A stretch of 63,336 nt of DNA, filler included, from Folioceros fuciformis (Eukaryota): NCBI GenBank assembly GCA_049999805.1. It is 16 parts of 16 records of this genome, joined end to end, with 100 filler letters (N's around TTAATTAATTAA, not from the genome) between each part and the next. Parts side by side here need not be neighbours in the genome. Positions count along the whole stretch, not along the records: positions 6,500 to 14,502 come from JBNGIO010000739.1; 15 more parts are not named here. One strand, given 5' to 3'. Under the pieces are notes generated by a model. That model ran no database searches. It saw nothing but the letters and a program-made list of their open reading frames with translations, and was not told where the DNA came from. The translations under genes and the position numbers were made by a program. How positions within the stretch are numbered: position 1 is the stretch's first letter; every line of letters begins with the position of its first letter. Positions 2,528 through 60,559 of this stretch are shown here, in pieces.

Positions 2528-2539
2528 TGGTATCAGAGC
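2528..2539 (+). promoter_or_regulatory. Primer binding site, tRNA-iMet
   Basis: TGGTATCAGAGC 2 nt after the LTR end. Confidence 0.95.
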
Positions 2540-3260
2540 TTGGTATGGAGCAAGGGTGATGACTGCACCTGTTGCGGGGGAAGTGAGCAAGGCGACCATG
2601 AAGAACTCATCCAAGTGTGTGTGACAATCCGAGGTGACAGGAGTCTCCAACCCTGCCGTCCTTAGGGGAGAAGCAATGGTAGCACGGGCCGCCATGCTCC
2701 AGCAAGGACGCTAGGAGCGGGGCGCCAGGAGGAGGGCACCCGGCCGCGGGCACGCGACGGCCGAGGTGGGTAGAGTGCCAAGCCCGCGCCCGCTGCTGGG
2801 CGAGGAGGGCATAGTGCCAAGCCCCCCCTACCGCTGTGGCCGTAGGGCGCAGCCAGACCGTCAAGGCTAGGCAGGGGTGCCGGACGCCCCGGCCACGGGC
2901 GACCCGGCCCGGCCACAAGTGCCCACCTGACGCGGGCGTCAGCTCGACAGCGCCGGACCCGGGACGACTGATTGTAACGGGCTAGCGGGCAAGGCAAACA
3001 AGGCCAGCAGGCTAGTCGGGCCAATGGGCGTCGTGGAAGTCAAGGAGCAAGTAACACAAGCAACGCGGGTGCTAACGACACGACTGCGGGCTAGTTCGGA
3101 TCCTGACCGCGAGGCAGCGAGATCTCAATCGGAGGATTTAGGCCTATCGATTCGGCTTGTGGACAGCCGATTCAAAACGAGAGTGAGGGTAATAGAATCA
3201 ACTAGTTCATTTCGATCGTTTCTTACTAGCCTTTTGGTTGATTTGCTTCGATTTTGAAAC

Positions 3261-4085
3261 ATGACGTCCTCAGAAAACGTCATGTTCAATTATATTGTCA
3301 GGTATATTCAATTGTATTGTCATTGTCAGGTGTATTGGTTGAAACAGCTGGTGGACTTGAAGATGAAGGAAGGGACGAGGATGTCCGATCATCTGAATGA
3401 GTTCAATACCATTTTCAGCCAGCTCTCATCTCAAGGTATCTCGTTTCCAGATTCCGTGAGAGCTATATTTCTGTTGGTCAGAGTACCAGAGACCTGGGAC
3501 ACTTTTCGTATAGCTCTGAGTAATTCCGCTCTTGCCATTGGTCTTACCGTTGTAAATGTAGAAGGTAGCCTGTTAACAGAGGAGGTGAACATGAAGAATA
3601 TGGAACCCTCGAAAGGTTCCAATGCCCTCATGGTGAAAGGAAGGTCCACTTCAAAGGGGAAGTACAAGGAGCGAAGTCATTCCCGTAGTAAGTCTCGTAT
3701 TCGTAACAATGTTGAGTGTTACCATTGTCACAAGAAGGGACACATCAGAAGGGACTGCGAGAAGCTCAAGAAGGACAAAGGCAAAGAGAAGTAGCAAAGC
3801 GACAACAAGGCAAGTTCGAGTGTCAAGCGTGACGAGGTGAACTCTGTTGATGATAGAGATGTTCTTACCTCTTCTTCCTTCGATTCTACACAACTGACAG
3901 CCGTGGAGAGTCACTTATTTACTAATTAAATAATTGACTCTGGAGCATCTTTCCATGTTACTCCGCATAGGGAGTGGTTTAGCACGTATGATGCCACTAG
4001 TTTAGGATGTGTTCGGCTTTGAAATAACTACGCATGCGAGATTGCAGGCGTTGGTAATGTGCAGTTGAAGTTCGACAATGGATCT
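3261..4085 (+). pseudogene. gag: Copia gag-protease (Tnt1/Tork-like), truncated by an insertion
   Basis: LKMKEG...DHLNEFN, RSKSR...CYHCHKKGHIRRDC, then IIDSGASFHVTPHREWF protease motif; stop codons present. Confidence 0.88.
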
Positions 4086-6399: not shown

Positions 6400-6499
6400 N
6401 NNNNNNNNNNNNNNNNNNNNNNNNNNNNNNNNNNNNNNNNNNNTTAATTAATTAANNNNNNNNNNNNNNNNNNNNNNNNNNNNNNNNNNNNNNNNNNNN
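6400..6499. other. Artificial contig spacer, first of 15
   Basis: 44N-TTAATTAATTAA-44N with stops in all six frames; other linkers start at 14547, 16854, 22531, 28555, 31314, 37455, 38571, 45539, 51701, 53855, 55941, 58267, 60376, 61834. Confidence 0.98.
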
Positions 6500-9400
6500 T
6501 TTTATCATTGGATTTATATAGACTTGGTATCTAATATACCTAAGTTCTTCATGTGTTTAGTATGTAACTCCCGACCAAGGGACTTTGTAAGTAAATCAGT
6601 TGAATTATCTTGAGTTTGTATATAATGTATATCTATGGTTTTATTTTCCAACATTTCTTTAATGTAATGGTATTCGACACCTATATGTTTAGTTCTAGAA
6701 TGGAATATAGGATTTCTGGCTAATGCTATGGCTCCTTGGCTGTCACTATATAAGGGTGTAGGGTTGTCTTGTGTATGATTAAGCTCACTTAAGGCTAACC
6801 TACTTCATACAATATCCTTGGCAACTGAGGTTCGTACTCTATACTCTGACTCAATGCTTAACAAGGCTATGGTCATTTATTTCTCACTTGACCATGAAAT
6901 AGGGGCTTTGCATAGCATAAGTATATAGCCAGATACTGATCGCCGTGTGTCAGGGTCGCCAACATAGTCGGCATCAGCATATGCTGTTAATATTGGTTTA
7001 TGCATACTCAGTGTATGTTGATAAACAAATCCTGTATTCATCGTGCTTTTGAGATACCGAAATATTCTTTTAACAGATGTCCAATGTTCACGTCCAGGAT
7101 TTTCTAGAAATTGTGAACAAACACTAACTTCAAAGTATATCAGGCCTAGTGAAGTTGCTCAAATATATATGTGTGCCAACAGCGTGTCAATAAGGTACTA
7201 TTGACATTTGTAACTTGTCTGCATCTATATGAGGGCACATGTTTTATGTGAGTCTTATCCCACTAGCAAAAGGAGTGGGAGCAGGTTTAGCGTCTCCTAA
7301 TCCAAATTTGATTAAGCTTTCCTTAATATATTTTGTTTGAAGAATGCTTAAAGTTCTACGGATGCTTTAATTTCAGCTAGGAGAGAGGATGAAGAGGAAG
7401 CCATAAATACGTCATCAACGTAAAGTAAGAGGTAAATTATCTCTTTTCCAGAGATTAATATATACATACAAGGATCTGCCTTGCTTTGTTGAAAACCTGG
7501 TTTCATAAGTTTAACATGTATTATGGTATTCCATTCCTTGCCAGATTGCTTCAATCCATAAATACATTTGATAAGCTTACACACCAAATTTTCTTTGCCT
7601 TTAACCTCATAACCCTTAGGTTGTCTCATGTATATTTCCTCTCGTAGATGCCCATGCAAATATGTTGTCTTCATATCCATCATATGGAGTTCAAGATCCT
7701 ACTTGGCAGTTAAAGCAAATATCATTCGGAGGCTGGCAAATTTGGCTACAGGGGCATAAGTGGCCCAAGGTACATAGTCTAGGCCAGGAATTTGTGTGAA
7801 ACCTATGGCTACTAGACGTGCCTTATATCTTTCAATAGAACCATCTCCTTTTCTTTTGATTTTGAATACCTATTTGCTTGTCACTATCTTCCTACCCTTG
7901 GGGGGTTTGAGTAGTTCCCATGTAGAATTCTTAATTAGGGAATCATATTCGGAATCTACTGCTGCATTCCATAAGCCCTTTTCAGGGGATGAGAAGGCTT
8001 GTTTAAGAGTAGTGGGTTCTTCTGGGGTCAACATTTGTCTAATATACGGCCTCGGAAGTAGCTAGGTATCCTAAAGGAGGCTCTTTCCACCCAGCAGGAC
8101 CAAGAATGGTTGGTCTGGTTCTGAGATTATATTCTAACATGGTCTAATCCAGATGGGCGGATTCCACAAAGCCCGTTTTGCGCTTTTTAAATTTGTCTTG
8201 ATCCGCACCCCATATCTACCTTTGATCTCTTTTCACAAACAATAAGACCACCGACATGTATGCGTATATTATTTATTCACCAAATATCAATAAAACCAAA
8301 ATAAATGCAGTACACATTGTGAGTCTTCTACGTGAAACTTGATATTTAACAATTGAAACATATGGTGCGTCGGTCAACCGGCGCATAAGCTATTCAAAAT
8401 ACTTCATGTTCTAGTAAAGGATGAGTTCAAGTTAAGTCTCACACAAAAACTGGGTCATCCTTGTTGGCCTCGGAACTGTATACAATACACCGGTGCGCCG
8501 GTCACTGGGGTCTGGATTTTGTACATTTGGTCTACCGGCGCACTCCCGCCGGCTTGGGGCTCTAGTGCGTCGATAGACCGGCGCACTCACGCCGATTCGC
8601 GCTCCAATGCACCAGTAGACCGGCCCATTCGAGCAGCCGGCTAGGGTAGAAGTGCACCGGTAGACTAGCGCACTCGGGCAGAAGTGCGCCAGTAGACCGG
8701 CGCACTCGGGTAGTGCAGGTCCTAATTCGTCCTCCTGCATGACAGGTCCATCAAAGGGAAGTCGAAGAGTAGGATCAGGAAAGTCCACAATATAGTCACT
8801 AGTATCAAAACAACATTCAAAAGAAGAACATTCAGGTTCGACATCCTCAAATGAAGGGTGAGCAGGCAAAACATTTCCCACTGAAGATGAAAATAGGGAA
8901 TGTTCATAAAAAGTGACACTACGAGAATAAAGAAGCCTCTTAGTGGAACGATCAAACAATTTATAGCCCTTGATTCCTTCCGAATAACCAATAAAGGTAT
9001 ATTTTACAGGCTTTGGATCAAACTTCCTTGTTAATGCTTTAGGGACAAAAACATATGCCAGAGATCCAAAAATGCGGAGATGTTCTATAGAGGGCTTTTT
9101 GCCTATAAAGGCTTCATATGGTGTCATACCTTGGACTGCTAAGGTGGGCAATCGGTTCATGAGATATGTGGTTGTGAGGAGTGTCTCAGCCCAATAAACC
9201 TTGGGTAACTTTGCTTGATTTAACAGGCAGCCAATAATCTCTTAAAGGCGTAGATTCTTATTTTCAGCTACGCCATTTTGTTGAGGAGTATAAACAACAG
9301 TAAGTTGTTGAGCAATACCGCGAAGGCGACAAAAATCCTCAAATTGATTGGAAGTAAACTCGCCACCATTGTCAGAACGTAAGGTTTTGAGTTTCTTCTC

Positions 9401-11258
9401 GGTTAATCTCTCAGCCCATACCCTATAGTCTTGGAAGTAACGATAAACATCTCCTTTGTAACTTAAGATATAGGTGAGAGTAAACTGAGAATAGCCGTTG
9501 ATGAAGGTCATAAAGAATCTGCTACCACTGAAGGAAGGTGTAGAGATAGGAAGGTGTAGAGATAGGGCCACAAATGTCTGTACAAACAAGCTCTAAAGGA
9601 CATTTCGCCCTCTGTGGGGAGATGTTCTTAAAATGGGCTTGATGTCTTTTGGTAATGACACAAGTCTCACACCATGAGAGGTGTTGAATGTGAGAGAGGT
9701 AGGGTGTACGATATAAATTTCCTGCCTTAGACATTTGTACTAATTTTTGGCTATTTGGATGACCAAGATGACAGTGCCATAACATAGTATGGCTAGGTGG
9801 TACAGAATTAGAGGATGCTACATTGATGGAATGTGTAGGACCCACTTTAACTGAGAGTTTGTATAACCCTTCTTCTAGTGTGCCTATGCAGATGAAATGT
9901 GACTTATTAGAAGTATATGAAATAAGGCAACTATCTGCATGAAGTATGACTTGCATACTATGTTCATAACATAAACTAGAGGCAGAGACTAGATTCTTAC
10001 GCATGGCTGGTACATGAAGAACGTGACATAAGTGTAGAGTCTGACATGTGGAACATCTGAGGACAACTAAACCTACGCCAGCTATTGGGAGGTTGTGATC
10101 ATCACCCAAGAGGACAAACTAGTGTCCCATGGTTGGGGAGTAGGACTCAAAGGAGTCTTTGTCATAGCAGATGTGTGAGGTAGCTCCACTGTCAAGGTAC
10201 CATAATTTATTAGTAGGCTAGGAGGATGCCAGACATACTGTAAGGGCAGAAGGGGTTGAGGAAGATGGTTTCTTCACAGCAACATTCGCAGCAAGTGAGG
10301 CCTCTTTCCTAGGCTCACCATTTTTCTTCCTTCTGCAGTCCTTCTCCATGTGATTTGGGATTCTGCACAAATTACAAATAATTCGTATCTTCTTATTACC
10401 TCTTGCAGGTGTGGAAGAAGACGAAGGGGCTCCCTTGAAGAAGCCTTGAGAGGAAGTAGTAGGCCTTGTGGGAAGAGATCCTTTGGTGTGGTTTTGACAG
10501 CGACCTCTTCCTCTGCCTCTTCCTATGAACATCACCTGCTGCCGGCTAGCTCGTGAGTCTTGACGTCGACTAGGCTCCTCCTATATCAATGCGGCTATCA
10601 ACTCATTTACACTTATATCCAAGGTTTTGTGCATATCCATATTCTTCTGTGCTGTTCTCAAGACAACGTTCTGAGTTGTCACACATGATCTATAGGAGGC
10701 TGGAAGAGAGGATAATAATGCAACAAAGCATGTTAACTGGGACAACTTGGAGTTGGAGGCAGCTTCAAGTTGGGATCTTGCCATTCGAAATGGACTAATA
10801 TGGTGTTCGATGGTATCAAATTCCCTCATTTTAAGGTTATGGAAATTACGAGTAGCAGTCACCAAACCCATAACATCCTTGGAGGAGTATAATTGTGCGA
10901 GGTGGTCCCACATTTCCTTGGAGGATCCTGCCTCGCTAATTTGCCGTACCATATGAAGAGAAAGACCACTTATAATGATGTCCTAGGCTCTCTCATCTTT
11001 CGCATCCCAAATACGTTTTTCATTAGTACTCCATACAGGGCGCTCTAATGCTCCACTGACGATGTCCCATAGGTCACAGTTGCGCAATACTCCTCTCATT
11101 CGCAGGCGCCAGACGTCATAGTCCTTGCCATTGAATATATCCTTCTCCTTGAAGCTGTCTCCAAAATTATTCACGACCATTGATTTGGTTTCAGTAGAAT
11201 CTTTGTCATTGTTGATTTCTACGTCAAGTTGCTCTCCCTCATCTTCGCGAGCAACCAT
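6500..11258 (-). pseudogene. gag-pol: Decayed copia gag-pol (gag-PR-INT-RT-RH)
   Basis: FKEKDIFNGKDYDVWRLRM, CNLCRIPNHMEKDC, YLDSGATSHIC, LWHCHLGH, LRSDNGGEF, LYVDD in copia order; many stops. Confidence 0.93.
8141..8712. mobile_element. Insertion into copia pol; probable DNA-transposon end with AGACCGGCGCACTC repeats
   Basis: Starts GGTCTAATCCAGATGGGCGGATTCC; near-identical inverted terminus ends at 47431. Confidence 0.55.
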
Positions 11259-11270
11259 TGCAGATGATGT

Positions 11271-11813
11271 TTAAAGGCCATGACTACGTCGTGTGCGTGG
11301 TGTTTTGGAGGAGATCACACTAGACGATGTTCCAATCATATAAAAAATAGAATATGCATGTAAGAATGTTGAATTCTGCAAAGAACTTTTAGACATTTTA
11401 GTATCTAAGTCTTCAATGCATTGTGCTAAGTGATTTAAGGCTTGGGTCAAAGATGACAATTGTCTACTCATGACCTTATGTCTAAGTTCAGAATCTACTT
11501 TGATAGATTTAAGAAGAGGTTGCAAGGAATTTGTGCTATCAATCACAATTGGACCAGCACGTAAATTGGGAATATGTTGAAGTGCTAAAACTAGAGATTC
11601 TACTTGTGATAAACTAAAAAAAGTAAGTAAATCACTCTTAGCAATCTCAATCAATTCTCCTTGATTCTTTGATTTTATAAGGATTGCACCAATAAAATTA
11701 CCAATAAATTTAGAATCTCTTTCAATTGGATCTATAAATTTAGTGGAATAGTTATAATTTGATGCATTCTCCCTTCATGCAGCCTTCAATCTCCTCCTAC
11801 TTCCTTGCCCCAT
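11271..11813 (-). CDS. ORF0 upstream of copia gag, 181 codons with one internal TGA, coiled-coil-like
   Basis: MGQGSRRRLKAA*RENAS...SRQLSSLTQALNHLAQCIEDLDTKM; lies between PBS and gag, stop 12 nt before gag ATG at 11258. Confidence 0.6.
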
Positions 11814-11984
11814 GAGAAGGAGTCAAGGAAGTGATGCACAATTTGTGCATCATAAAAATATGATGTTGAGCATAATTGTAAAGTTGCCTCCAAGCCAAAA
11901 TTCCATGCTGCAAAATTAGTAACGCACAAAAGAATTCATGCCTAAGGAGGAGGCAAGCAAGTTGTCAAACATCTAGAGCAGGAT

Positions 11985-11996
11985 GCTCTGATACCA
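11985..11996 (-). promoter_or_regulatory. PBS, tRNA-iMet
   Basis: Reverse complement TGGTATCAGAGC adjoining the LTR. Confidence 0.95.
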
Positions 11997-12271
11997 TGAT
12001 GAGAATCACGTACAAATGTACTTGTAAGAGAGTTTTGCAAAGAATTGTATTGCATTATTTAATGAAAAGTACATAGCTGTTTATATAGAGGCCTAGAAGG
12101 CGGTTACAACAACTTATTGTTGTAACCATAAGTTGTTATAACAATAAGTTGTTATAACAACTAACTACCTAAATAACTACCCAAAGAAACTACTTGATGC
12201 CCTAGATATTTAATAATGTTTAAGTAAAGGAACCCTAGTGAATAGTGCCCTAAACCTATTGTGTTTCATCA
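11997..12271 (-). mobile_element. Copia 5' LTR
   Basis: TGATGA...TCATCA 6-bp terminal inverted repeat; inserted in the protease region of another copia. Confidence 0.9.
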
Positions 12272-13606
12272 GACAGCGGGCTAGCCATTGCTGGCTATGG
12301 TGACATCTTATTTCCTCTGAGCAGTGGGCAGCAGATCCAGCTACTCAGGGTTCTTCATGTGCCTAGCATGAAGAAGAATTCGCTATCAGTACGCAAACTG
12401 GTTATAGGGTTGCGCATTTGCTTTACATCAACTGGCTATTTAGTTACTTCACTACAACATCCCTCTGTTATCCTTGGGGAAGGAGTTTCCTATAATGACC
12501 TACATCATTTTGATACGTCAAAAGCACATATCAAGGATCAATCTCTTGGCTTGGTGGTTGATGATAAACCTGCAGTTGATGATACATACCTCTGGCATAG
12601 CCGGTTGTGTCACCCTAGTGTGACTTATATACGACAGATGATTAATAGGCAAGAGCTCTACAAGGACCCTCTCATTTTTAAAATCAAAGATCACCTGTTC
12701 TGTGAGCATAGTTAGGTTGGTAAGATGGCTCAATGGCCCTACAATGACCCAGAGCCAACTAAGGCACTCGGACTCCTGGATGTTGTACACTCGGATATTT
12801 GTGGACAAATGTCCACAGCCTCTTTTGGTGGTGCTTCATACTTCCTTCTTTTCTTGGATGAATGGAGTCATTACAATATGCTATATTTTTTGCATCACCG
12901 TTCTCAAACATACGAGAAATTTGTTGAGTATGTTCAGATGGCAGAAACCCAAACTGGTTGTACCCTGAAGAAATTGAGAAGCGATAATGCAAAGGAATAC
13001 CTCAGCGATGAGTTTTAGTCTTATTGCCGACAAAAGAGCATCCATCATCAGTTGACGGTGCCCTACCATTCAGCACAAAACTCATATGCTGAAAGATACA
13101 ATAGAACCTTGCAAGAGCATTGTCGGCCTACCTTATTATCTGCAGGCCTTACCCATGGGTACTGGGCTGAAGCCGTGGCAACTGTAAATTATGTCCATAA
13201 TAGGCTGCCTAGTAAGCCATCCTTCTTATTCACACCTTTTGAGCATTGGTGTAGTCATAAGCCTAGGATTGGACACCTCAGGATATTTGGTGCTGTCGCT
13301 TATGCCTACATTCCCATAGACAAACGTGCTAAGATGGACAACACGGCTACTAAACAAGTATTTGTTGGTTATTCAGAACAGGCAAAAGGTTACAAGTTAT
13401 ATGATTCACATACAAAACAACTCACTTTAGCAAGGAGTGTGAGTTTCAACGAAAGTTTCATAGTCACTTCAAATCTTAAGTCTATCACTAGCCATGAGCC
13501 GTTATCAAAACCTACAGTTTATGGATGTTTACCTATATTTAATTCAGAACATGGTGAAGAGGACAAGGACCTGTTGTTTGATGGTCCTCTACAGCCAGTT
13601 GACATC
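12272..13606 (+). pseudogene. pol: Copia protease C-terminus, GAG-pre-integrase and integrase
   Basis: LWHSRLCH, VHSDICG, LRSDNAKEY, HLRIFG, GYKLYD. Confidence 0.92.
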
Positions 13607-14502
13607 TATGGTGGCAAAACCCCGGGCACTATTTGCCAATGGGTTCAACCTTTAGCGGCCACACTTATCCTACTGTCGTTGAGACACTGGGTTTCGTTCC
13701 CACAAAGGAGCGATGGGGTTCCTAGTTGCTCTGGATGGAGGGTCGGACTCACTCGATTCGATGATGGATTCGAGAGCTCCCCTCCAGCTTCGATTTGTCG
13801 TGGGACAGTTCTCGCTATCCAGCAGATAGCTGCACCTCTCTCGGTGCTCACAAACTCACTCCAGTCACTACAACGACCCTAATTTCTTAGATCTGCAACT
13901 TCCCTCGCTTCACTTCACTTCACTCACTCACTCCCTCACTCCAGCACCAGCAACCAGCAACGACACCAACACCTTCTACGCTTTCCTATTGACTCCTGTG
14001 GAGGCAAAACCTTGGGCTCACTCCCAAAGTGAATGACTCCCTCCTCCTACAGGCTCACCTGATCTTATAAGAGCCTCTCTCTCTCTCTGACTTCACCTCT
14101 CTCTAACTTGAGAAATATTATTTTAATAGCCTAGCCGGCTATCACCAGCCACTTATTTAGACTTCAAGCACATCCTGCCACCAATGAGCTTGCCCTACCA
14201 CCACAAGGATCTACCACCTCTTAGACTATCCTGAGACTTCGGAGGATGTCTGATCTTCAAAGATCTGCGGACGCCGCCTCTTCCTTGTTGGATGGTCGCC
14301 CGCTAAGTCTTCCCCTGCAACTGTTCACCCTTGGTGGCTGAGCCAGCCTCCAGGAAAGGAACATGAGCAATGGGAAAGATAGAGAAGAGGTGGGAAGGAG
14401 TGGGATCAGTAGTCGGAACCTGGCCTGAAAACAGTAGCTTATTCAGCGGGATCAGCTTCCAGCCGAAATGGTTCCTCAACCATGGAAGGCTGACCCTGGG
14501 GT
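13607..14502 (+). mobile_element. 5' part of a TGTGG-family LTR, probably gypsy
   Basis: TATGGTGGCAAAACCCCGGG start; homologous inverted ends at 39777, 45719, 51956, 60550; second short start at 13997. Confidence 0.75.
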
Positions 14503-15121: not shown

Positions 15122-16809
15122 ATGGCGCGGACTTCCAACAATACTTAGGTGGGTTCCGGTAGTAGGGGACGACCCACGAGGGCAGCCAGCTCTCCCCAAA
15201 CCAATGTTCCGTCCTTTTCTTGCTTTGGGGGCCAACTAAACTCAAGGGATTTGATAGACCTACGGACTTGGGCATGTGACGCAAACATCCAGCTTGACTG
15301 GATATATGGCAGACACTGGTCGTATGTTCATGAAGGCTTGGTGAAGGAGTGCTATACCAACCTACAGCGATCAAAGGAGGAGTTGGAAGCCCTACCTGAA
15401 CGAAACACGAGGACTGACCCTCGGTGTTGGACTGTCTGGAGCATCCGACAGGTGTATGGTAGGTCGGAAGAGGAGAGAGATGGTATTGGGATCCTGGACC
15501 AAGCCAGCCAATAGTTGAGGTAGGGTACCAGGTAGGGGATTTGGCGATGACACTAGTAGTGCAAGCACACAGTGGAGCACCAGATTTGGGGAGAAGGAGC
15601 CCAGTGAATTGGGAAGCAGCCCGAGGAGCACACGCCACAAGCCAAGGTAACGATACTTTGTTGGGAGTGTGGAGCAACATCATTCAGTGTGGCCAACAGC
15701 TACCACACATCAATTGGAGAGAGGCCTGTGCAATGATTGCAACCCTACTACAGGAGGACATAAGTCGGGATGCAAACTAGGCACCACTAGAATCCAAAGT
15801 GCAGGAATTGGAAAAGGAGTGAGAACAGTATCTCCTCAAGGATGGTGAGCAAAGGCAAGGACTGGAGAAGTTGACCCAGCAGGTGACCACGTTGCAAACT
15901 TCCCAACAAGGTTTATCACATGAGATCATTGCATGTCGAAGGGACCTCGCCCAGTCTGAGGAAACTAGGAATGTGGTGGAGGAACAGCTACGGGAACAAG
16001 TCTACATTGCAAAGGATTTACAAGGCAAGCTAGATGAGTTGGAGGCACAGAATGCTAAATCGAACCAGGAACTCCAGCAACGACTTGAAGCAGGGCAACG
16101 AGAGCGAGTGGAGAGGGAATAATTGACCATCCAATTAAAAGACCTTCAGCAAGAGAAAGCACAACAAGAAGCTGAGCACCAGACCAAGATTCATAGGATG
16201 CTGGTGGTTCGAGCTCGTAGGTTTCGTGCTGACTATGCCTACTTGATGGGGTGCATGACCAAGCTTCATGCAAGTCATCAAGAAAACCTTGACCTACAGT
16301 TGAAGGTAGGGGCGATGGAGGCTGAACGGGATATCTACAAGAGTAGATGCGAGGGTGGGGATTGGGTTGTTGACATGGATACCATAGATGTAGCTCAACA
16401 GAATCGCAACCTCCACCTACACCAACGTCTACTTGCTCATCACAAGGAACTGGCAGCATTGGCAAGGCGAAGGTATCTTGGGCCACATGATGACGACCGT
16501 GAGGCCCTGGAGATAGTGCCCCTACCAACAGACTTTCAAGAGGACAACAGTATGGACCTGGAGAGCTCGCAATGGGAACCTGAGGAACTGCTATGGGCTA
16601 GGAAGAGCACGCAACAAGGGGTACCTACTCCCGTAGAGAACCTACCTACGAGAGGAGGGGTAGGGAACCTACCTACGAGAGGAGGGGTAGGGAACCTACC
16701 TACGAGAAGAGGGGTAGGGAACCTACCTACGAGAGGAGGGGTAGGAATGGTAGGTACCCTACCTACGGAGGGAACATTCCCACCCTATGTAGGGAAGGAG
16801 CCTCAAGTT
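15122..16809 (+). pseudogene. Retrotransposon accessory ORF: globular domain, long coiled coil, repeat tail
   Basis: Starts MARTSNN; W...LVKEC and DPRCWTVWSIRQVYG motifs shared with 62163-63030; second copy at 47756-48968. Confidence 0.65.
16639..16745 (+). repeat. 27-bp tandem repeat x4 encoding NLPTRGGVG
   Basis: AACCTACCTACGAGAGGAGGGGTAGGG units; 3 units in the copy near 48095-48180. Confidence 0.9.
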
Positions 16810-16909
16810 NNNNNNNNNNNNNNNNNNNNNNNNNNNNNNNNNNNNNNNNNNNNTTAATTAATTAANNNNNNNNNNNNNNNNNNNNNNNNNNNNNNNNNNN
16901 NNNNNNNNN

Positions 16910-24392: not shown

Positions 24393-24770
24393 TGTCAATA
24401 GGATCGACTCCAATCTATGTGCAAGTGTAGGAGAGGAGAGGAGAGAAGAGAGGGTGGTATTGGTAGTCACAACCAAAAACAATACACATCACCACTATCT
24501 TACTATGGAGGTCCGAGGTCTCCATTTAAGTAGTACATTTAGGGCTACACAACTTCCAAGTTCAATATGAAATAATCTACACTATCCTAAGTTCATTAAT
24601 AACTAAAACTAGTTTAGTATGAACCCAACCGGGATAACTAACACCACATGAGTTTAGCTTATATAGAGCTCGATAACTCAACACTCCCCCTCGAGCTCAA
24701 CATAGCATTTGTACGCCTAACATAGCTCGGAATTTCTTCAGCTTCTCTGCTCCCATAGGCTTAGTAAATA
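24393..24770 (-). mobile_element. Copia 3' LTR (24393-24683), PPT and RNase H tip
   Basis: TGTCAA...TCAACA; near-identical to 53268-53560. Confidence 0.9.
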
Positions 24771-25023
24771 TTAAAGGTTAGATTAGGATCGAGCAAGAGA
24801 AAGATTAGAAGAAGAGATTATTTGCATTAGGCCGTGGGCCTTAAAAAAGCGTGGAGACGACCGTTGGAGTGGTGTCCCGTGAACGGTGTCGGTTAGATTT
24901 TTAGGTCGCGACTATTAGGGGCACCGATACGAATCTAGCGATTTGTATTAGCCACTATTTGAGTTTGGCCTAATTAATTAAATAACTTAAATAACCTAAA
25001 ATGCTGGATACCCTAATTCTATA
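24771..25023 (-). mobile_element. 3' LTR of the copia at 25419-28510; PPT near 25024-25032
   Basis: Minus strand reads AAGTGGGAG|TATAGAATT; interrupts the RNase H of the previous element. Confidence 0.7.
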
Positions 25024-31747: not shown

Positions 31748-34700
31748 TCACGGTCGACCCTTACAACTGCAAAAACCATCTGCGAATCGATGAACACGGT
31801 ACCCATCTCTTACAACAATGTCCCTCTGTTCAAGCCTTGACATGATCTCCGTAGAACTGTGACAGTCACTGCACATGCGGAGATTCTTTGTCACCACCAG
31901 AGGTGTCCCGCATTGAGTGTTCAGCAGGCCAAACGCCAGAGCCAGTTTCTCAGCATGCCCACAAAGCATGTCTTCCTTATCCTTCTCAGACCCTGAAGAC
32001 TCCAACACCAATTTTGTGTGAGGTACGTGGCCTCCTTGCTTCAGACGCACATTCGTGCTCTGTACCTTTGATGCAATCTCCTCTCTTCTTTCTCCCACCA
32101 CAAACGTATGTACCTCCGTCTTCACCTCAATGCTCGCTACTGCAGGTTTCTTGTTAGCTCCGGCTACCCTTCTCTGTGCTTCAATCCTGTCTACATCGCT
32201 CCACCTCCCTGCATCTGCGTAGGCATTTGCCATGAGCACATACGCAGACGCCTCCTGAGGGTGCAGCCCAACAATGCTTTCGAAACACCACATGGCTCTC
32301 TCGATATCCCCGTGGGTTTTGCAAGCATTCAGGAAAGACATAAAGCCCACAACATTATTTTGGATATCGCATGATAAGAGGACGTTCTCAGCCTCATCTA
32401 AATGCCCTGCACGCCCAAGAAGATCAATCAAGCAATTGTAGTGCTCAGTGGTAGGTTTGATGCCATATTCTTCAGCCATGGAATCAAAGAGCTTGCGACC
32501 CTCAAGCACCAGTCCCTCGTGACTGCATGCTACTAGGAGGCAAGTGAAAGTAGCCTCATCCGGCTGGATACCGGCAACTAGCATCTCCTCGAAACACGCT
32601 AGTGCTTTGTTACCTTCATCACATGCACCATATCCAAATATCAGCGCGTTCCATGTCACCACATCCTTTAACGCCAAGCTGTTAAAAACCTGACGTGCAG
32701 CCACGAGTCTCCCACATTTTGCATACATGTCCACCAGGCAGTTGCCCAATACGATATTATCCAGCAGTCCTCTTCTCACAATCTCTAAATGCAGCTGCCT
32801 GCCCTTCTCTATGGCTCCAATGCTCCCACAGGCGTTGAGAAGGGAAGCAAAAGTAACGTGGTTAGCTATTATCAGGCCCTCCTCCTCCATTCGTCCATAC
32901 AAAACAAGGCAGTCATTCCCAAGCCCTTGCTGGGCATACCCCGTAATCATCGCAGTCCATGTCACCACATTCTTCGTGGTCATGCCGTCAAAAACCCGGC
33001 GTGCATCTGTCAGTTGGCCACATTTCGCATACATGTCAACCAGGCAGTTGCCCAACACTACGTTGTCCAGCAGCCCTCTTTCGACAATCTGTGAGTGCAG
33101 CTGCTTGCCCTTCTGTAAGGCACCAGTGCTTGCACAGGCTTTAAGAAGGCAAGCAAACGTAACATCATTAGCCAAAACGAGCCCCTCTTGCTCCATTTGT
33201 CCATACACAGCAAGCGCCTCTTGGCCGTGTCCTTGCTGTGCATACCCAGCTATCAGGGCATTCCATGTCACCACATCCTTTGTGGCCAAGCTGTCAAACA
33301 ACAGACGTGCAACTTTCAGTTCGCCACATTTAGCATACATGCCCAAAAGGCAGTTGCCCACCAGCAAGTTATCCAGCAGTCCTCTTTCTACAATCAGTGA
33401 GTGCAGCTGCCTGCCCTTATGCAAGGCCCCAGCACTTGCACAGGCCTTGAGAAGGGAAGCAAAAGTGACATGGTCTGCCACAATCAAGCCCTCCTGTTCC
33501 ATTTCTTCATATAAAACAAGGGCCTCATGCCCCAGCCCCGTGTCGGCATATGCAGCAATCAGGACATTCCAGGTCACCACATCCTTTGTGGCTAAGCTGT
33601 GGAAAACCTGGCATGCATCTGGCAGTTCCCCGCATCTTGCATACATGTCTACCAGGCATGTCCCCACCGGTGCTCTATCCAGCATTCTTCGTTCGACAAT
33701 CAGGGAGTGCAGCTGCCTGCCCTTCTGTATAGCACCAGTGCGTGCACAGGCCTTGAGAAGGCAAGCAAATGTAATATGATTGGCGAGAGTAAGCCCATCC
33801 TGCTCCATTTGTTCGTACACAGCAAGAGCTTCATGCCCGAGCTCTTGCTCAGCATACCCTGCTATCAGGGCATTCCATGTCACCACATTCTTTGTGCTCA
33901 TGCTGTCAAAAACCTGGCGTGCATCTTTCATTTCACCACATTTGGCATGTCCAGATATCATGGCATTCCACGTCACCACATCCTTTTTGGCCATTCTGTC
34001 GAAAACCTGGCGTGCAGCTTTTACTTCTCCACATTTTGAATACATGTCCACCAGGCAGTTTCCAACAAATACGTTAGTTGGAATGTCACTGTGCAGCACA
34101 TCGTAGTGCACTTTTCTGCCAGATTCCAAGTCGGAAGCAAATGCGCAAGCTTGAAGCGCAGCCACAAAGACGTGACCATTCGGCTTCACTCCTGACCTAC
34201 GCATCTCATGGTAGAGTTGTATGGCCTCCTTAGCTTGCCCATGCTTTGCGTGTGCAGAGATCATGGAACACCACATGAAGGCATCTGGTCTGCGCACCCT
34301 GGTGAACACATCCATAGCCTCCTCTAGTCGACCTCCATATGCATACATGCGCAAGATATGGCTCCCCACGCATGCAATCGAATCGTACCCAAGTTTAACA
34401 CTGAGATCATGAACTCGTCTCCCAGCGACCAAATCCTTTTTCGCTGTACACAGCTTTAGCACAGTGCAGAACAGTGAGTGAGAAATAGCTGAGCGAGTCT
34501 GCGCCAGAAATTCCAGGGCTCCAACTGCCGAGGAAAGCTTGCCCTGCTGGCATAACATGCTCACGGTTCCAGCCTCTAAATGGCCCATTTCCGATCCTGC
34601 ACGCCTGCCAGGCTCAGGATTCTCCGGATAGCTGGACTTGAAACGAGAGGGAGCACGGCCCATCTGTACATCCAAGGAAACGAGCCGCTCATCAACCCAA

Positions 34701-35356
34701 GCTGGTTTGAACATATTGTTTAACCACAGGACCTCACCAGGCCCCTTACGCTGGAAGTCGGGCGACCGCAAACTCTTCTTACGTCGTCTGTCATCCCACC
34801 ACACGGTAGGGTCGAGAAAGAATTGTCGCCACAGGTGCTCCTGCTCTTGGGAACTCCCATAGCTGGAGAATCCGCTCCCACCCACACATTTTCCCGGAAA
34901 TGTAAGTGCTGGGCTCCTTTCAGGAGTGCTGCACATTGACCCCATCAAGGATCCTTCGTGGCTGCCAGGTTCAGGCATGAAGGGCTTGGAAGCAAAGGCG
35001 CCACGAGGTGAATGCATATCCAAGGAAACCAGCTGCTCATCAACCCAATCTGGCTTGAACAGATTGTCTGACCAAAGGACCTCGCCGGACCCTTTACGCC
35101 GAAAGAGAGGCGGACGGCCGCATCTGTTGTTCCACCACCTGATAGGTTCCACAAAAAGTTGTTGCCTCAAGTGATTCTGCCCCTGGCTTCGCGCATGATG
35201 GGTGGAAAGTCCGTCCCCACCCACAAATTTTCCCCGAAGCGGAAGTGCTGGTCTCTTGGTAGTGCTGCAACTGCAACTGCACCTGCACCTAGGTGCACGC
35301 GGGGGCGAGGTGGCTTGCCACACGGTGAGACTATCTGACCCGGGAAAGAACGACTC
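31748..35356 (-). CDS. PLS-class PPR-E1-E2-DYW:KP (GRP-type) organellar RNA-editing factor with two N-terminal PDF-like motifs; main exon
   Basis: About 21 P/L/S motifs, E1, E2, KPAVASIEV, HAEKLA, CSDCH, CSCKGRP*; uninterrupted frame of about 1200 codons; true start unresolved, TTTTAG acceptor at 35357. Confidence 0.96.
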   Translation of the reverse strand, partial: ESFFPGSDSLTVWQATSPPRAPRCRCSCSCSTTKRPALPLRGKFVGGDGLSTHHARSQGQNHLRQQLFVEPIRWWNNRCGRPPLFRRKGSGEVLWSDNLFKPDWVDEQLVSLDMHSPRGAFASKPFMPEPGSHEGSLMGSMCSTPERSPALTFPGKCVGGSGFSSYGSSQEQEHLWRQFFLDPTVWWDDRRRKKSLRSPDFQRKGPGEVLWLNNMFKPAWVDERLVSLDVQMGRAPSRFKSSYPENPEPGRRAGSEMGHLEAGTVSMLCQQGKLSSAVGALEFLAQTRSAISHSLFCTVLKLCTAKKDLVAGRRVHDLSVKLGYDSIACVGSHILRMYAYGGRLEEAMDVFTRVRRPDAFMWCSMISAHAKHGQAKEAIQLYHEMRRSGVKPNGHVFVAALQACAFASDLESGRKVHYDVLHSDIPTNVFVGNCLVDMYSKCGEVKAARQVFDRMAKKDVVTWNAMISGHAKCGEMKDARQVFDSMSTKNVVTWNALIAGYAEQELGHEALAVYEQMEQDGLTLANHITFACLLKACARTGAIQKGRQLHSLIVERRMLDRAPVGTCLVDMYARCGELPDACQVFHSLATKDVVTWNVLIAAYADTGLGHEALVLYEEMEQEGLIVADHVTFASLLKACASAGALHKGRQLHSLIVERGLLDNLLVGNCLLGMYAKCGELKVARLLFDSLATKDVVTWNALIAGYAQQGHGQEALAVYGQMEQEGLVLANDVTFACLLKACASTGALQKGKQLHSQIVERGLLDNVVLGNCLVDMYAKCGQLTDARRVFDGMTTKNVVTWTAMITGYAQQGLGNDCLVLYGRMEEEGLIIANHVTFASLLNACGSIGAIEKGRQLHLEIVRRGLLDNIVLGNCLVDMYAKCGRLVAARQVFNSLALKDVVTWNALIFGYGACDEGNKALACFEEMLVAGIQPDEATFTCLLVACSHEGLVLEGRKLFDSMAEEYGIKPTTEHYNCLIDLLGRAGHLDEAENVLLSCDIQNNVVGFMSFLNACKTHGDIERAMWCFESIVGLHPQEASAYVLMANAYADAGRWSDVDRIEAQRRVAGANKKPAVASIEVKTEVHTFVVGERREEIASKVQSTNVRLKQGGHVPHTKLVLESSGSEKDKEDMLCGHAEKLALAFGLLNTQCGTPLVVTKNLRMCSDCHSSTEIMSRLEQRDIVVRDGYRVHRFADGFCSCKGRP

Positions 35357-39777: not shown

Positions 39778-40616
39778 ACAAGACTTATGAAAATTGCGTG
39801 AGCGTTCCTCAGCCAGTAGTGCTCCTATATAACCTCTTCAAGTGTAATAGTAGGAAACTAGCCTACTGCAGCTGCCTTAACTACAGCGTGTATTGTGGCA
39901 TTCTGACTACCAACAAAGTTGCTGTAGCTCTTAGGTAGAGAGGCAAGAAGGCTTACTGCTGCTTGTACCTCTATAAGAACAGTACCACAATATGCTAGGT
40001 TTGCTCTATACGTCCTGTATTTGTTGATGTAGGCCTCCACTGGCTCATTTTCCTTCATCCTCAAATTGAAGAAATCCCTGTAAGCATGGACAAGAGATGT
40101 AGAGCTCTTGTCATGATAAATAGACTCAAACACCTTCCACACATCATTAGAAGTCTTGGCTCAGATGGTGTGGGGCATCATGGTTCGATCTAAGGCAGCA
40201 ATGAGTATAGATTGGGCACACCTATCCTTTCGCTCCCAGGCTAGGATTTTGTCTGCTGATCTAGTAGGTACAGAGACCTTTGGTTCTGTTCCATCGACTA
40301 TGGAAAATACCTCATTCTCCTCAAAGATATGACTGAGTCTCATGGCCCAGATTTGATAGTCCATTCCATTGAACCTATCTTTATTTTGAAAATCTATTTT
40401 CGAAGGGACCATGGCAGATGCAGGAACAACAGGCATTTGTGCTGCCATGCTTGATGAGTTGAGGATGGATTGAAGGACTGAATGAAGTTGTAATTGTCTA
40501 GCTCTCTCCAAAAGATTGGAAGTAGAGAAATCCCATACAGGGTATGAGAAAGAATCAGCAAACACGAAGGAGATGTCATAAACATCATCATCATCTTTAT
40601 GATCTGGTGCTTGCAT
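39778..40616 (-). pseudogene. gag: Copia gag
   Basis: FQNKDRFNGMDYQIWAMRL, LRMKENE, LLASLPKSY; one stop. Confidence 0.9.
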
Positions 40617-40630
40617 ATAAGTTAAGCAAG

Positions 40631-41116
40631 TCACAACATAGTGGAGGACTTTAAGCCAGAAGAAGAGTTCAAACAGGAGAAATTTGAGGAAAGATAATTT
40701 TCACATAAAATGTTTAGTGAAAGAATTCCCTCACAGAGCTTCTCGATGAGGAGGTCACTTGACTCCACACACCTTCTCAAGCTGACGAGCTGACAAGAAA
40801 TGACAAGTTCTGTGTCTTTCTTTCGATGGAGAGTCAAGTCCTTCCGAAGATCGTAGACTCCCTTGCCGTGATGATGTAAAGTCGTATCAGACTTGCGAGG
40901 ATGAGAATTGCAGCAACCATTAAAGGAAGAAATTGATATTCATTCCCGAGTTCTTCTGGTTGAATGAATGTCCCTTCGTGTCAACAAAGGCTGTCGTCTG
41001 ACTGATTGAGGGACGTTGTGCTCCTCAAATCTGCAATCAAGACAGGATCAAGGAAATGAGTCTCTTTGTCTGTTGATTATCCTGGGAAACGGTGCTGTGA
41101 GTCTGCGCCTAGGCAT
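40631..41116 (-). CDS. ORF0 upstream of gag, 162 codons with two internal TGA
   Basis: MPRRRLTAP...SCQLVSLRRCVESSDLLIEKL; ATG about 52 nt after the PBS, stop 14 nt before the ATG at 40616. Confidence 0.5.
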
Positions 41117-41168: not shown

Positions 41169-41404
41169 GCTCTGATACCATAATAAAATCTATACTATGG
41201 ATCATACAACACAGGTGCGGAGGCATGGAATGGAAGATTGAGAATGTAGGCAAGACAAGATGCAAGAGATCACCAGCATAAAAGAGAATAATTAAGGAGG
41301 GCATAGCATTGTGCTATATACCCAAAAAACATAAGCAGTTGTTAAACCGTCATAACTAAAATATGAAACTAACTCTTTAACCTAGGTTAGAAGTCTTAAC
41401 TTCA
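41169..41404 (-). mobile_element. PBS (41169-41180) and 5' LTR of a copia
   Basis: Reverse complement TGGTATCAGAGC; outer LTR edge approximate. Confidence 0.75.
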
Positions 41405-45051: not shown

Positions 45052-45492
45052 TCAAAGAATATTGACAACATTGTGAAGTCTGTCAGCTGCAGGTACAACT
45101 ACTGACTCCTCTTGTGTTCTGTTTGTTATTTTCTGATTTCTAATCTCCCACTTGTTGAAGGCATACACAGAACAGGATGGGCAGGAGTTTGGACTTCCAA
45201 ACATATGTTTCTTACTTGTCTTCTTGGCGTGCTTACAGGCTACACCCCTGAATGCAGGGTTAGCAAGCAAGGCTGGCTTCAACAACGTAAGAAGTTTGAA
45301 ATCCAAGTGACCTATCTGTTCTTGTAAGTCTCTCAAATCTACACTATTTGCAGAAACCCTTTGCAGAATACTGCTAAAGCGTGCATCAACGTGCTGCTGG
45401 TGTGACTCAATTCTGTTTACTAACTGTGTAACGCTGGTTGTAGGTGCGGCGTGAGTTGTAAGGAAACCTCTGGGATGACCATTCCCATCAAA
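45052..45492 (-). CDS. ORF0 upstream of gag, at least 147 codons, open to the gap
   Basis: ...ARFSSILQRVSANSVDLRDLQEQIGHLDFKLL...; no stop from the contig edge to 45052. Confidence 0.6.
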   Translation of the reverse strand, partial: FDGNGHPRGFLTTHAAPTTSVTQLVNRIESHQQHVDARFSSILQRVSANSVDLRDLQEQIGHLDFKLLTLLKPALLANPAFRGVACKHAKKTSKKHMFGSPNSCPSCSVYAFNKWEIRNQKITNRTQEESVVVPAADRLHNVVNIL

Positions 45493-45594
45493 GGNNNNNN
45501 NNNNNNNNNNNNNNNNNNNNNNNNNNNNNNNNNNNNNNTTAATTAATTAANNNNNNNNNNNNNNNNNNNNNNNNNNNNNNNNNNNNNNNNNNNN

Positions 45595-45719
45595 CAGCAG
45601 CAAGGAACCCCATCGCTCCTTCGTGGGAACGAAACCCAATGTCTCAACGACAGTGGGATAAGTGTGGCCACTAAAGGTGGGACCCGTTGGCAATCAGTGC
45701 CCAGGGTTTTGCCTCCACA
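45595..45719 (-). mobile_element. TGTGG-family LTR 5' end
   Basis: GGGTTTTGCCTCCACA terminus. Confidence 0.8.
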
Positions 45720-46954
45720 CCAGGCAACCCCCCTGCTCGCAGGCAGCCCGTAAGCCTAGCTGCCTGAGCATGTATCCTACCAGCCTGACTGGCCGAGCAG
45801 CCAGGCCAAACTGGCTGTGCCGACCTGTTTCCAGCTTGCCAGGCCGACTGGTCGGGCAGCCCCCAACCAGCCATTTGCCTATCTAGCTCTAGCCAACCCC
45901 CATCAGGCTGCTGCTTACTCCTCCCTCGGCCAGCCGGCTGCCTGGCCTCGCCCAGGCCAAGTTAGCCGACCAGTGTGGCTAGCTGAACAGCCGGTCCATT
46001 ACTCACCCGGCTACCCTCCAGCCTATTGACCCTGAGTCGATGCTCCCCCTACCTGGCCATCTGGCTGGCTAACTTTCCCCAAACCTGACGCTCCCACAAC
46101 CTTAGGCCCTCCTTGCGTGACCCTCGGTCCCAGGCACCGCTATCCCCATCTCCCGCTTCCACCAGCATCGACCAGAGAGAGCCCCGCTCGCCTTCCATGA
46201 CGTCCTAGGGTTTACCATTCCTCTATCACCTTACCCCAAGAACAAGAGCCCACGTCCTATCTACCACACAACCTACCTACCCTATCGACTCACCATCAAT
46301 CTAGCTACTATTCTAACCTAATCTCCTAACCTTTCCTCTACAACACTCACTCACAAATCCAAAAAAAAACAAAACCTATCATTTCCCAGGGGTCTGTTCA
46401 GCATGTGGAGTTCACAGCTGGCGACCAGTTGGTTTAGGACCTGTAGTGTGTTGCCGGCTGTACAGTGTCTGGTAGGATCGCAAGCCGCGTGTTGCCAGCT
46501 GTACAGTGTCTGGAAGGATCGTGGGCAGCATGTTGCCGGTTGTATAGTGTCTGGTAGGATCACAAGGTGTAATGACCAGGGTAAAAGGGCTTGCCCCTAG
46601 CTCTTGATTGTAAAGAATGTGTCTTTCTCTCGACCTGTCCACTCTTGTTCCTTGTTTGGACAAGTGCTGTAGGCCCGGCCATGTTTCATGGCGTCTGGTA
46701 AGGTTGTGGGGAGGAGATATCCGAGAGGGGAGTGTGTTCCGTTCTTTCTTTTCTTTGGGGTTAGTCTAGTGACTCTTGCCGGGTAGGAGGAGTCATTAGG
46801 GAAGTATAGAAGCTAGTGGTGTCGTTGTTGGTTGTTGGTGTTGGTGCTGGAGCGAGAGAGTGAGTGAAGTGAGTGAGGGAAGTCGCAGATCTGAGAGGTC
46901 AGGGTCGTTGTAGTGACTAGAGTGCATTTGTGGGCACTGAGAGAAGTGCCGTTG
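45720..46954 (-). mobile_element. TGTGG-family LTR/internal mosaic including a 41-bp x3 tandem repeat (46449-46567)
   Basis: 46130-46410 is an inverted match to 49130-49430; 46820-46954 is an inverted match to 13830-13970. Confidence 0.65.
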
Positions 46955-53267: not shown

Positions 53268-53810
53268 TGTCAATAGGATCGACTCCAGTCTACGTGCAAG
53301 TGTAGGAGAGGAGAGGAGAGAAGAGAGGGTGGTATTGGTGATCACAACCATGAAAACAATACACATCACCACTGTCTTACTATGGAGGTCCAAGGTCTCC
53401 ATTTAAGTAGTACATTTAGGGCTACACAACTTCCAGGTTCAATATGGGATAATCTACACTATCCTAAGTTCACTAATAACTAGAACTAGTCTAGTATGAA
53501 CCCAACTGGGATAACTAACACCACATGAGTTTAGCTCATATAGAGCTCGATAACTCAACACTCCCCCTCGAGCTCAACATAGCATCCGTACGCCTAACAT
53601 AGCTCGGAATTTCTTCAGCTTCTCTGCTCCCATTGGCTTAGTAAATATATCGGCTATCTGCTCGTCTGTGTTGACATACACAAGATCAATAGCTCCAGAT
53701 AAAATCCGTTCGCGAAGAAAATGATAATGTATTTCAATGTGTTTTGTCCTGGCATGAAACACCGGGTTTCGCGCCAACTGTATGCTGCTAAGATTGTCAC
53801 AGTAGATAAC
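53268..53810 (-). mobile_element. Copia 3' LTR (53268-53560), PPT and RNase H end
   Basis: RTKHIEIHYH...ADIFTK; pol stop abuts GAGGGGGAG|TGTTGAG. Confidence 0.92.
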
Positions 53811-58322: not shown

Positions 58323-58745
58323 ACTCTACCTTGCTCTAGGGATCATAATAGGATTGTGCACAAGAGTCAAAGGCAACCTTTTCTTCGGAACTCATGTAGG
58401 AATTACATAAGGGATACAAGGAAAAATTTTGCTAGGGACTCAAGTGTCCACAATTCAGATGATTCAGCGCTTTGTTGGAAGGTTTCTGCTGCGATTCATG
58501 CATCCCTTGCTTCTCTCATAGATCTAAAGACTGTGGTGAATGGAATTGTGGAGTCTCTTCTTCGCTTAAACGCAGAGGTGTGCAGGCAATTCTTAGCAGT
58601 TGAAGATCTTCTAGATAAAAATTTTGCGGCACACTCCTCACGGCTAGGGCGGGCGCCTGATCTTTCTACCAGAGACCCATTGGTGGCCATGTATTTGCCA
58701 TCGTTGAAGCCATCTCGCCCACGGCGGGATGTTCCTCTCCTCTGA
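58323..58745 (+). CDS. ORF0 upstream of gag, at least 141 codons, open from the gap
   Basis: ...HASLASLIDLKTVVNGIVESLLRLNAEV... Confidence 0.55.
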   Translation, partial: TLPCSRDHNRIVHKSQRQPFLRNSCRNYIRDTRKNFARDSSVHNSDDSALCWKVSAAIHASLASLIDLKTVVNGIVESLLRLNAEVCRQFLAVEDLLDKNFAAHSSRLGRAPDLSTRDPLVAMYLPSLKPSRPRRDVPLL

Positions 58746-59142
58746 AGCAGTTTGAGATCTGAAGGGGTGCAGGCACTGGCAGGACGACGCAACCCCTAGT
58801 TTTTTTGCTGTTCGCCGCTGGGCGCTCCCCTGCTCTTGTGTGGTTTACAGATCTGGATCGGCGCCTGGAAGGTTGCCCGTGAGGATTCTTCTTCCACATG
58901 TGCTTAGAGTTTGTGCCCGTTTTCCCCGTGTCGCGGTGTGCATCGAGTTGCGGCAACTTAGCGTTTCGGCCTTCCGTTTAAGTTGGCGGTTCGTTGAGTT
59001 GGGCCTTTTCCTTAAAAAAAAAACTTTTTTAGAAGCTCCTTTTTAATTAACTTCAATTTGAGTTTCTTAGAAAAAGGACTTTAGAATAGTTTTTTTTAAG
59101 TCTTCTCTAGAGGTAGCCTACCCATCTTTTGCTAGATTGTGT

Positions 59143-60550: not shown

Positions 60551-60559
60551 CCTGCCCTG

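Follow-up and report, generated by a model that had tools for sequence, protein, structure and literature searches.

A candidate family-specific open reading frame ahead of gag in a decayed Ty1/copia element of Folioceros fuciformis

We analysed an open reading frame (ORF) at 11271-11813 on the minus strand of a 63,336-base stretch of Folioceros fuciformis DNA (the whole stretch is called the window here), where it lies ahead of gag in a decayed Ty1/copia retrotransposon that we refer to as element 1. The window consists of 16 short contigs of 1-8 kb and is not one stretch of chromosome. Its contig joints are 100-base spacers of the form N44-TTAATTAATTAA-N44, a six-frame stop linker present at 15 places from 6400-6499 to 61790-61889. 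Because the contigs were joined artificially, adjacency across a spacer carries no meaning, and ORFs that enter a spacer are cut. Ty1/copia fragments crowd the contigs. An earlier note on this DNA had described frames ahead of gag in four such fragments, elements 1 to 4, as an ORF0 sharing one conserved motif; we call the four frames and their predicted proteins ORF0_1 to ORF0_4.

Element 1 begins with a 5' long terminal repeat (LTR) at approximately 11997-12270 on the minus strand, which contains a TATATAA box and whose terminal ...CA adjoins the primer-binding site (PBS). The PBS (11985-11996, minus strand) is an exact match of the initiator methionine tRNA (tRNA-iMet) type, and we take its 12-mer, TGGTATCAGAGC, to be the usual copia PBS. 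This reading agrees with Neumann 2019 (PMC6317226) in the portion of that survey available to us. No 3' LTR was found in the contig of element 1, and no second LTR copy within the window. ORF0_1 starts at an ATG at 11813, 171 nt from the PBS, and comprises 180 codons followed by TAA, with a single break in the frame, a TGA at codon 13 (11775-11777, minus strand). Its translation from 11813 to 11271 reads MGQGSRRRLKAA*RENAS...RRSHGL*, and it matched no Pfam family at cut-off. A 12-nt spacer (11259-11270, minus strand) separates the TAA from the gag ATG at 11258; ORF0_1 and gag share one reading frame, with the TAA and four codons between them. The leader from PBS to gag measures 726 nt, which is unusually long, and is 35% GC. 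The gag frame (10581-11258, minus strand) carries DUF4219 and Retrotran_gag_2 domains (E 4.9e-9 and 3.1e-19), starts in a good ATG context with a purine at -3 and G at +4, and is interrupted in frame by a stop at 10983-10985. The pol region that follows is disrupted by stops and frameshifts and retains an SH3_retrovirus domain at 8432-9241. A second copia element with integrase- and SH3-like frames (12254-13882, plus strand) abuts the 5' LTR on the opposite strand; since its integrase frame starts at about 12254, element 1 appears to be nested in it.

Several properties of ORF0_1 are those of a coding frame. Its open stretch of 167 codons was reached by none of 1000 dinucleotide shuffles of the leader, and a stretch of 180 codons with at most one stop by 1 of 1000. 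We also scored codon usage by log-odds, with the window's intact coding frames as the training set and with sense codons alone counted. As stop codons are left out of this score, openness itself adds nothing to it. ORF0_1 scored 0.079, compared with 0.083 for gag of element 1 and 0.053 +/- 0.07 for true coding windows. The other two frames of the leader scored negative. Among the 104 ORFs of at least 100 codons, ORF0_1 ranked 8th, and most spurious ORFs were negative. The gag-pol region of element 1 has a stop or frameshift about every 100-200 codons, from which we conclude that the element is old. With one stop in 180 codons, ORF0_1 has decayed no faster than gag; decay alike in both is as expected if both were coding at insertion. 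We found no tandem-repeat origin for ORF0_1, and no tandem arrays in the leader frames tested. An N-myristoylation signal at its MGQGS... terminus was considered and set aside, position 6 (R) being a misfit to the PROSITE pattern.

Other copies of element 1 were sought among contigs of public sequencing runs aligned to 10600-12250 at 85% likeness or more. These contigs are 160-310 nt long, too short to encode ORF0. Two DNA runs with one organism label gave 99 and 98 contigs, covering 30 of 30 bins, and a run of a second organism label gave 48, covering 29 of 30. So many contigs across the region indicate a multi-copy family. At 11776, the middle of the internal TGA, all contigs that cover the site in the first two runs differ from the window (3/3 and 5/5), as does one contig in the third, which accounts for a depth of 82.6 out of 87.1. 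The difference is a transversion that turns the TGA into a sense codon other than arginine. The internal stop is therefore private to the window copy, every other contig reading a sense codon there. The earlier note had observed that internal stops in these frames are TGA, which holds for the one in element 1 and the two in element 2, and had suggested deamination of CGA as their source. For element 1 this origin falls away, because the codon in other copies does not specify arginine and the change is not a transition but a transversion. None of the differences listed fell on the ORF0_1 start codon, on its TAA or on the spacer of 12 nt. Position 11281 is covered by five contigs, together at a depth of about 108, which must therefore span the TAA; the terminal TAA thus appears to be retained in other copies, as judged from the listed differences. 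Contig depth peaked at 11944-11999 (the PBS) and at 12112-12167, where the LTR has a 16-nt tandem repeat. Several of the contigs agree with the window at the edge of PBS and LTR and then diverge from it; they presumably come from other copia families sharing the PBS.

In elements 2, 3 and 4, too, the leader is long, exceeding 550 nt, and has a sense-strand frame of its own. Each of the four frames is followed, on its own strand, by Pfam copia gag domains. The hosts are Ty1/copia elements, as shown by a copia-type gag in all four (below cut-off in element 2), by a tRNA-iMet PBS in elements 1 and 2 and by the SH3_retrovirus domain in the pol of element 1. The frame of element 2 (40631-41116, minus strand) runs for 161 codons from the MPRRRL start at 41116, includes two internal TGAs and ends in TGA; the tRNA-iMet-type PBS lies at 41169-41180 (minus strand). 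Its gag frame (40161-40616, minus strand) has its ATG 14 nt past the TGA of the leader frame, in another frame, and matches Retrotran_gag_2 with E 3.1e-4 and 20.7 bits against a Pfam cut-off of 27. Taken alone, the element 2 leader frame cannot be told from chance: its 102-codon open piece was reached by 137 of 1000 shuffles, at most two stops in 161 codons by 135 of 1000, and its codon score was -0.072. The frame of element 3 (45052-45494, minus strand, 146 codons) is cut at its 5' end by the contig end, and that of element 4 (58323-58745, plus strand, 140 codons) by the contig start, so that neither start is visible in the window; the PBS of both elements is off contig as well. The element 3 frame is supported as above chance (3/1000 shuffles; codon score 0.023, the highest of its three frames), and the element 4 frame is marginal (38/1000; codon score 0.062). 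Both were probably coding too.

For the two frames with visible starts, the earlier note had placed the stop 12-14 nt before the gag ATG. This spacing was confirmed for elements 1 and 2 and does not extend to the others. In element 3 the gag ATG (44938) lies 114 nt from the leader frame and in a different frame, and in element 4 the gag frame opens at 59071, with a first ATG at about 59143, leaving a gap of about 400 nt. Two of the gags are extended at their N-termini: that of element 2 by about 64 residues (MQAP..MAAQ, 40425-40616, minus strand; codon score 0.141) and that of element 4 by about 95 (59071-59355, plus strand; codon score 0.105). Both extensions have coding-like codon usage and lie ahead of the conserved KEKDRF..DY..W with which the Pfam gag domain starts.

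The claim that had drawn attention to these frames was a motif of identical spacing in all four. The strings QLSSL-x10-IEDL (element 1), QLVSL-x10-IEKL (element 2), RFSSI-x10-LRDL (element 3) and SLASL-x10-VESL (element 4) are exactly as had been written, with correct positions and spacing, and the four leaders indeed have no DNA similarity to one another (blastn, word 9, E<=1e-3). However, the alignment of these strings did not exceed chance. Aligned over 19 residues in the four proteins, the strings give a sum-of-pairs score of 74, a value that 111 of 300 residue shuffles also attained, and the best ungapped 19-residue block, partly in different registers, scored 82 and was reached by 31 of 300. 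Pairwise comparisons pointed the same way. BLASTP between the ORF0 proteins returned E values of 4-19 or no alignment, tblastn of each protein against the window found only its self-match, Smith-Waterman local alignment gave z <=2 for all six pairs, and five of six pairs scored at or below the shuffle mean plus one standard deviation in semi-global alignment. A motif expression and a profile hidden Markov model searched against all six frames of the window recovered the input sequences alone, a result that is uninformative given an expected background that we estimate at about 0.004. No pairwise, four-way or profile signal was thus significant, while the gags of the same elements align readily at 29-41% identity (E 1e-25 to 1e-45). 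A pattern like QLSSL-x10-IEDL will arise from any set of amphipathic helices, and is no evidence for a shared family. The earlier note had itself cautioned that heptad patterns can align by chance. It had also named what would count against its proposal, namely no significance against shuffled controls together with closed frames in young copies; we found the former, yet the frame of the element 1 family appears to be open, not closed.

Two pairs of proteins gave weak hints of kinship. The visible starts MGQGSRRRL of element 1 and MPRRRL of element 2 are present as had been reported. Of the 1369 12-mers beginning with Met across the window's six frames, these two alone include RRRL, and they spell its arginines and leucine with partly different codons. 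With composition correction off, BLASTP aligned 65 residues of ORF0_1 and ORF0_2 at 31% (E 0.084), collinearly with the match at the N-termini, and gave E 0.025 for ORF0_2 and ORF0_4. The semi-global score of this second pair was reached by 6 and 11 of 2000 shuffles at two gap settings and by 56 and 109 of 2000 at two others. Its score of 55.5 compares with up to 45.5 for reversed-sequence controls, and its register is unlike that of the four-way motif. The gag closest to that of element 2 is that of element 4. These hints do not survive correction for the number of looks. They would still suit a common descent of some of the ORF0s. A match between ORF0_3 and the N-terminal extension of the element 4 gag was rejected: it reached z 4.0 with 200 shuffles and was equalled by 12 of 2000 on repetition, was gappy, and came from among 21 pairs.

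A coiled coil, as had been proposed, was borne out in part. In each ORF0 protein the motif lies within or beside the 28 residues whose heptad periodicity is strongest. By heptad moment this periodicity is significant against shuffles in ORF0_1 (3/300) and ORF0_4 (13/300) and not in ORF0_2 (58/300) or ORF0_3 (40/300). AlphaFold2 without an alignment predicted a 62-residue helix in ORF0_4 (residues 47-108), with a per-residue confidence value (pLDDT) of 90-96 over residues ~60-100; the model of ORF0_1 had a pLDDT of 36 and is unusable. Complex prediction for two copies of residues 40-115 of ORF0_4 scored 0.01 against a mark of 0.32, which counts neither way.

Protein searches returned no relatives. 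A search of 1.84 billion protein representatives gave ORF0_1 no match at E<=1e-3. Word-based searches covering similar and longer lengths turned up no relative of ORF0_1, nor did one with ORF0_4 turn up any, and viral contigs gave no match. Against the PDB, ORF0_1 gave weak matches to SMC coiled coils alone (phmmer E 0.021-0.057). The ESM Atlas offered nothing usable for ORF0_1, and its best value for ORF0_3, 0.77 to phage GPO scaffold clusters, lies in the chance range. A metagenome scan with ORF0_1 returned 22 loci, three of which (L002, L003 and L017) are bacterial SMC genes sharing IEDLDTKM; the remaining 19, examined by match pattern alone, show the same pattern. We rejected these SMC matches as spurious because they are forced by the exact 8-residue search word IEDLDTKM. 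The bacterial SMC coiled-coil neck does match ORF0_1 weakly at residues ~97-146, but this is a likeness in helix composition and not kinship, and it fell far short of significance in the search of 1.84 billion representatives. Blanks of this kind are weak evidence, since the frames of this plant's transposable elements may be poorly represented in protein collections.

Frames in this position are known from other plant LTR retrotransposons. Rice Retrosat2, RIRE3 and RIRE8, which belong to Ty3/gypsy (Tekay), have an ORF0 before gag-pol that is 30-34% similar among them, compared with 69-70% for ORF1, in the part of the source consulted (PMC3485330). Tekay 5' additional ORFs (aORFs) are described as having long helices in common and no amino-acid similarity between species (PMC11728184, from the accessible part). 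As far as the available portions of three reports go, the 5' extra ORFs (eORFs) of Ty3/gypsy, including Ogre ORF1, are divergent, helix-containing and without assigned function (PMC3485330, PMC11728184, PMC7264820), and Athila ORF1 domains are predicted to oligomerise via coiled coils (PMC13547354, likewise in part). Like the Retrosat2-type ORF0s, the frame of element 1 is on the sense strand between the 5' LTR and PBS and gag-pol and has no assignable function, a likeness drawn from published descriptions. It differs from them in host, Ty1/copia instead of Ty3/gypsy, in length (~180 codons vs ~400), in an LTR of ~270 bp instead of more than 3 kb, and in a stop that, in two elements, is separated by 12-14 nt from the ATG of gag. 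Ogre ORF1 (Tat/Ogre) and Athila ORF1 likewise resemble it as extra ORFs typical of plant LTR retrotransposon lineages, but their superfamily is the other one, and Pfam recognises families in them (plant mobile domain, PF03078) that did not turn up in the ORF0s here.

Neumann 2019 (PMC6317226), in the sections at hand, defines an eORF-5'F class of 5' forward extra ORFs that are heterogeneous, mostly lack conserved domains and were possibly acquired independently or evolve fast. With a threshold of 250 codons, 582 copia elements in 45 groups are reported there to have eORFs, and for copia the text highlights just the SIRE 3' ORF. The frames of elements 1 to 4 are like this class in 5' position and forward orientation, but at 140-180 codons they would escape a survey of that scope. 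They miss the threshold at 180, 161, more than 146 and more than 140 codons, and this threshold is a survey cut-off and not a biological criterion. Our look through the literature found no description of a copia ORF before gag, which is not proof that none exists. Frames of this kind are known from Ty3/gypsy, and for copia they have been catalogued at 250 codons or more; that of element 1 is shorter and has a copia host.

We consider it somewhat probable that 11271-11813 is a family-specific 5' extra ORF (an aORF or eORF) in the leader of an old and decayed Ty1/copia element. The proposal that an extra ORF precedes gag has held up at least for element 1, on the strength of the shuffles, the gag-like codons, the private internal stop and the apparently kept TAA. 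Read from the sequence, the evidence supports one such family-specific ORF and not a conserved protein family. The active ancestor would have encoded a protein of ~180 residues without detectable relatives and with at least one amphipathic helix, in a frame whose TAA stood 12 nt ahead of where gag starts. Its full-length RNA would have been bicistronic, with ORF0 translated first. Only a minority of ribosomes might then have gone on to gag, terminating and reinitiating at the ATG close by; alternatively, gag might have been translated from another RNA isoform. ORF0 would in this way have yielded a small, fast-evolving helical accessory protein and throttled gag-pol translation. The earlier note had proposed reinitiation or splicing in similar terms. 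Reinitiation of the calicivirus type uses a termination upstream ribosomal binding site, with UGGGA within ~100 nt upstream of the stop-start site; the final 150 nt of the leader frame contain no TGGGA in element 1 or in element 2. A crude look-up of splice sites in the leaders gave nothing decisive.

Several observations weigh against this interpretation. No protein search found a relative of ORF0. The leader has six ATGs ahead of the ORF0_1 ATG and 15 ahead of the gag ATG, so neither frame would be easily reached by plain scanning. In plants, reinitiation after a 180-codon ORF is normally very inefficient, and long upstream ORFs tend to trigger nonsense-mediated decay. Retention of the TAA is deduced solely from its absence among the differences listed, with 216 further rows of differences besides. 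Contigs of the second organism have 1-2 nt deletions, at least four in ORF0_1 and at least three in gag, and the two runs of the first organism label may come from the very sample that gave the window. The listed differences divide into synonymous and non-synonymous as 6:10 in ORF0_1 and 6:9 in gag; these ratios carry no signal of selection and have no power, because many of the differences are the window copy's own decay.

The absence of homologues, the many upstream ATGs and the lack of a selection signal among the listed variants would also fit leaders that make no protein and act as long cis-acting RNA in packaging, dimerisation or translational control, with the frames as accidents of composition or functionless leftovers. 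The element 2 frame, with its 137/1000 and negative codon score, and the unconfident model of ORF0_1 lean the same way, and the basic isoelectric points of the four leader frames (9.5-9.9) do not speak for a protein, since 52% of window ORFs of at least 100 codons have values of 9.4 or more and basicity is therefore not distinctive. However, frames of 167-180 codons came up in only 0-1 of 1000 shuffles of the element 1 leader and that of element 3 in 3 of 1000, gag-like codon usage is confined to one frame of the element 1 leader, and its single stop is private to the window copy. An AT-rich non-coding leader drifting for as long as pol should have stops in every frame. We regard the RNA explanation as unlikely. 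Still less likely, in our view, is that ORF0 is the N-terminal part of a longer Gag, joined in the active element or by readthrough and split here by decay. That ORF0_1 and gag lie in one frame, a TAA and four codons apart, would suit such a protein, as would the coding-like extensions of about 60-95 residues on the gags of elements 2 and 4, but a shared frame has a prior of one in three. The TAA is apparently kept in other copies, the contig of the second organism label included, among the differences listed, and a TAA with A as the next base makes for strong termination. The leader and gag frames are different from each other in element 2, and gaps of 114 and ~400 nt part them in elements 3 and 4.

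The remaining alternative is that of the earlier note, in which a single conserved accessory protein with a coiled coil, inherited from a common copia ancestor, has diverged into the four frames, with the motif as its functional core. All four do occupy the same place and strand before gag, and elements 1 and 2 share both the rare RRRL N-terminus and a stop 12-14 nt before a gag-frame ATG. The uncorrected BLASTP values for ORF0_1 with ORF0_2 and ORF0_2 with ORF0_4, and the better two of the semi-global settings for the latter, lean towards kinship. With gags 29-41% identical and an ORF0 evolving at the rate seen in Retrosat2, similarity would in any case be undetectable, so that common descent is compatible with the blanks. 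Against this, the four-way block and the best block are at the level of shuffles, and BLASTP, tblastn, Smith-Waterman and five of six semi-global pairs are without signal. The likeness of ORF0_2 to ORF0_4 fades at the other two gap settings and runs in a register different from that of the motif, the frame of element 2 is itself within chance, and motif position and gag spacing differ in elements 3 and 4. We therefore hold a conserved family of this kind to be improbable. An equally speculative extension would be a plant Ty1/copia lineage with an ancestral, fast-evolving ORF0, marked by a conserved M-x(1-4)-RRRL start, an amphipathic oligomerising helix and a stop 12-14 nt before gag, whose bicistronic RNA would be translated by coupled reinitiation without a viral transactivator; we think there is little chance that this is so.

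A family-specific 5' extra ORF in element 1 would bear on a wider question. Plant LTR retrotransposons have many extra ORFs, nearly all without assigned function, and surveys have covered those above 250 codons only. If copia leader frames of 150-180 codons are genes, they would form a hidden layer of small, rapidly evolving transposon proteins, which could be silencing suppressors, targeting factors or particle-assembly factors. The stop 12-14 nt before gag also raises the concrete question of how plant ribosomes reach gag.

Other contents of the window were recorded alongside. An additional copia element at 2528-3794 (plus strand) has an exact tRNA-iMet PBS, a GC-rich leader (53-61%) of ~700 nt and a gag apparently without its N-terminal part; it is the fifth with at least 500 nt of visible leader, in which we saw no convincing frame. 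A search of the window against Rfam gave 0 matches. Further repeat families are represented by two pairs of segments, 95-96% identical and on different contigs, 24476-24771 with 53353-53648 and 45557-45721 with 60388-60552, the latter at the starts of two contigs. An ORF at 16198-16857 (plus strand), which enters a spacer, repeats the peptide GNLPTRGGV about four times in tandem. An intact PPR gene of 1202 codons at 31748-35356 (minus strand), which identifies the source as a land plant, has an E motif and a DYW deaminase domain, as in organelle RNA-editing factors of plants, and an internal periodicity of 306 nt that is seen as the direct repeats D1/D2.

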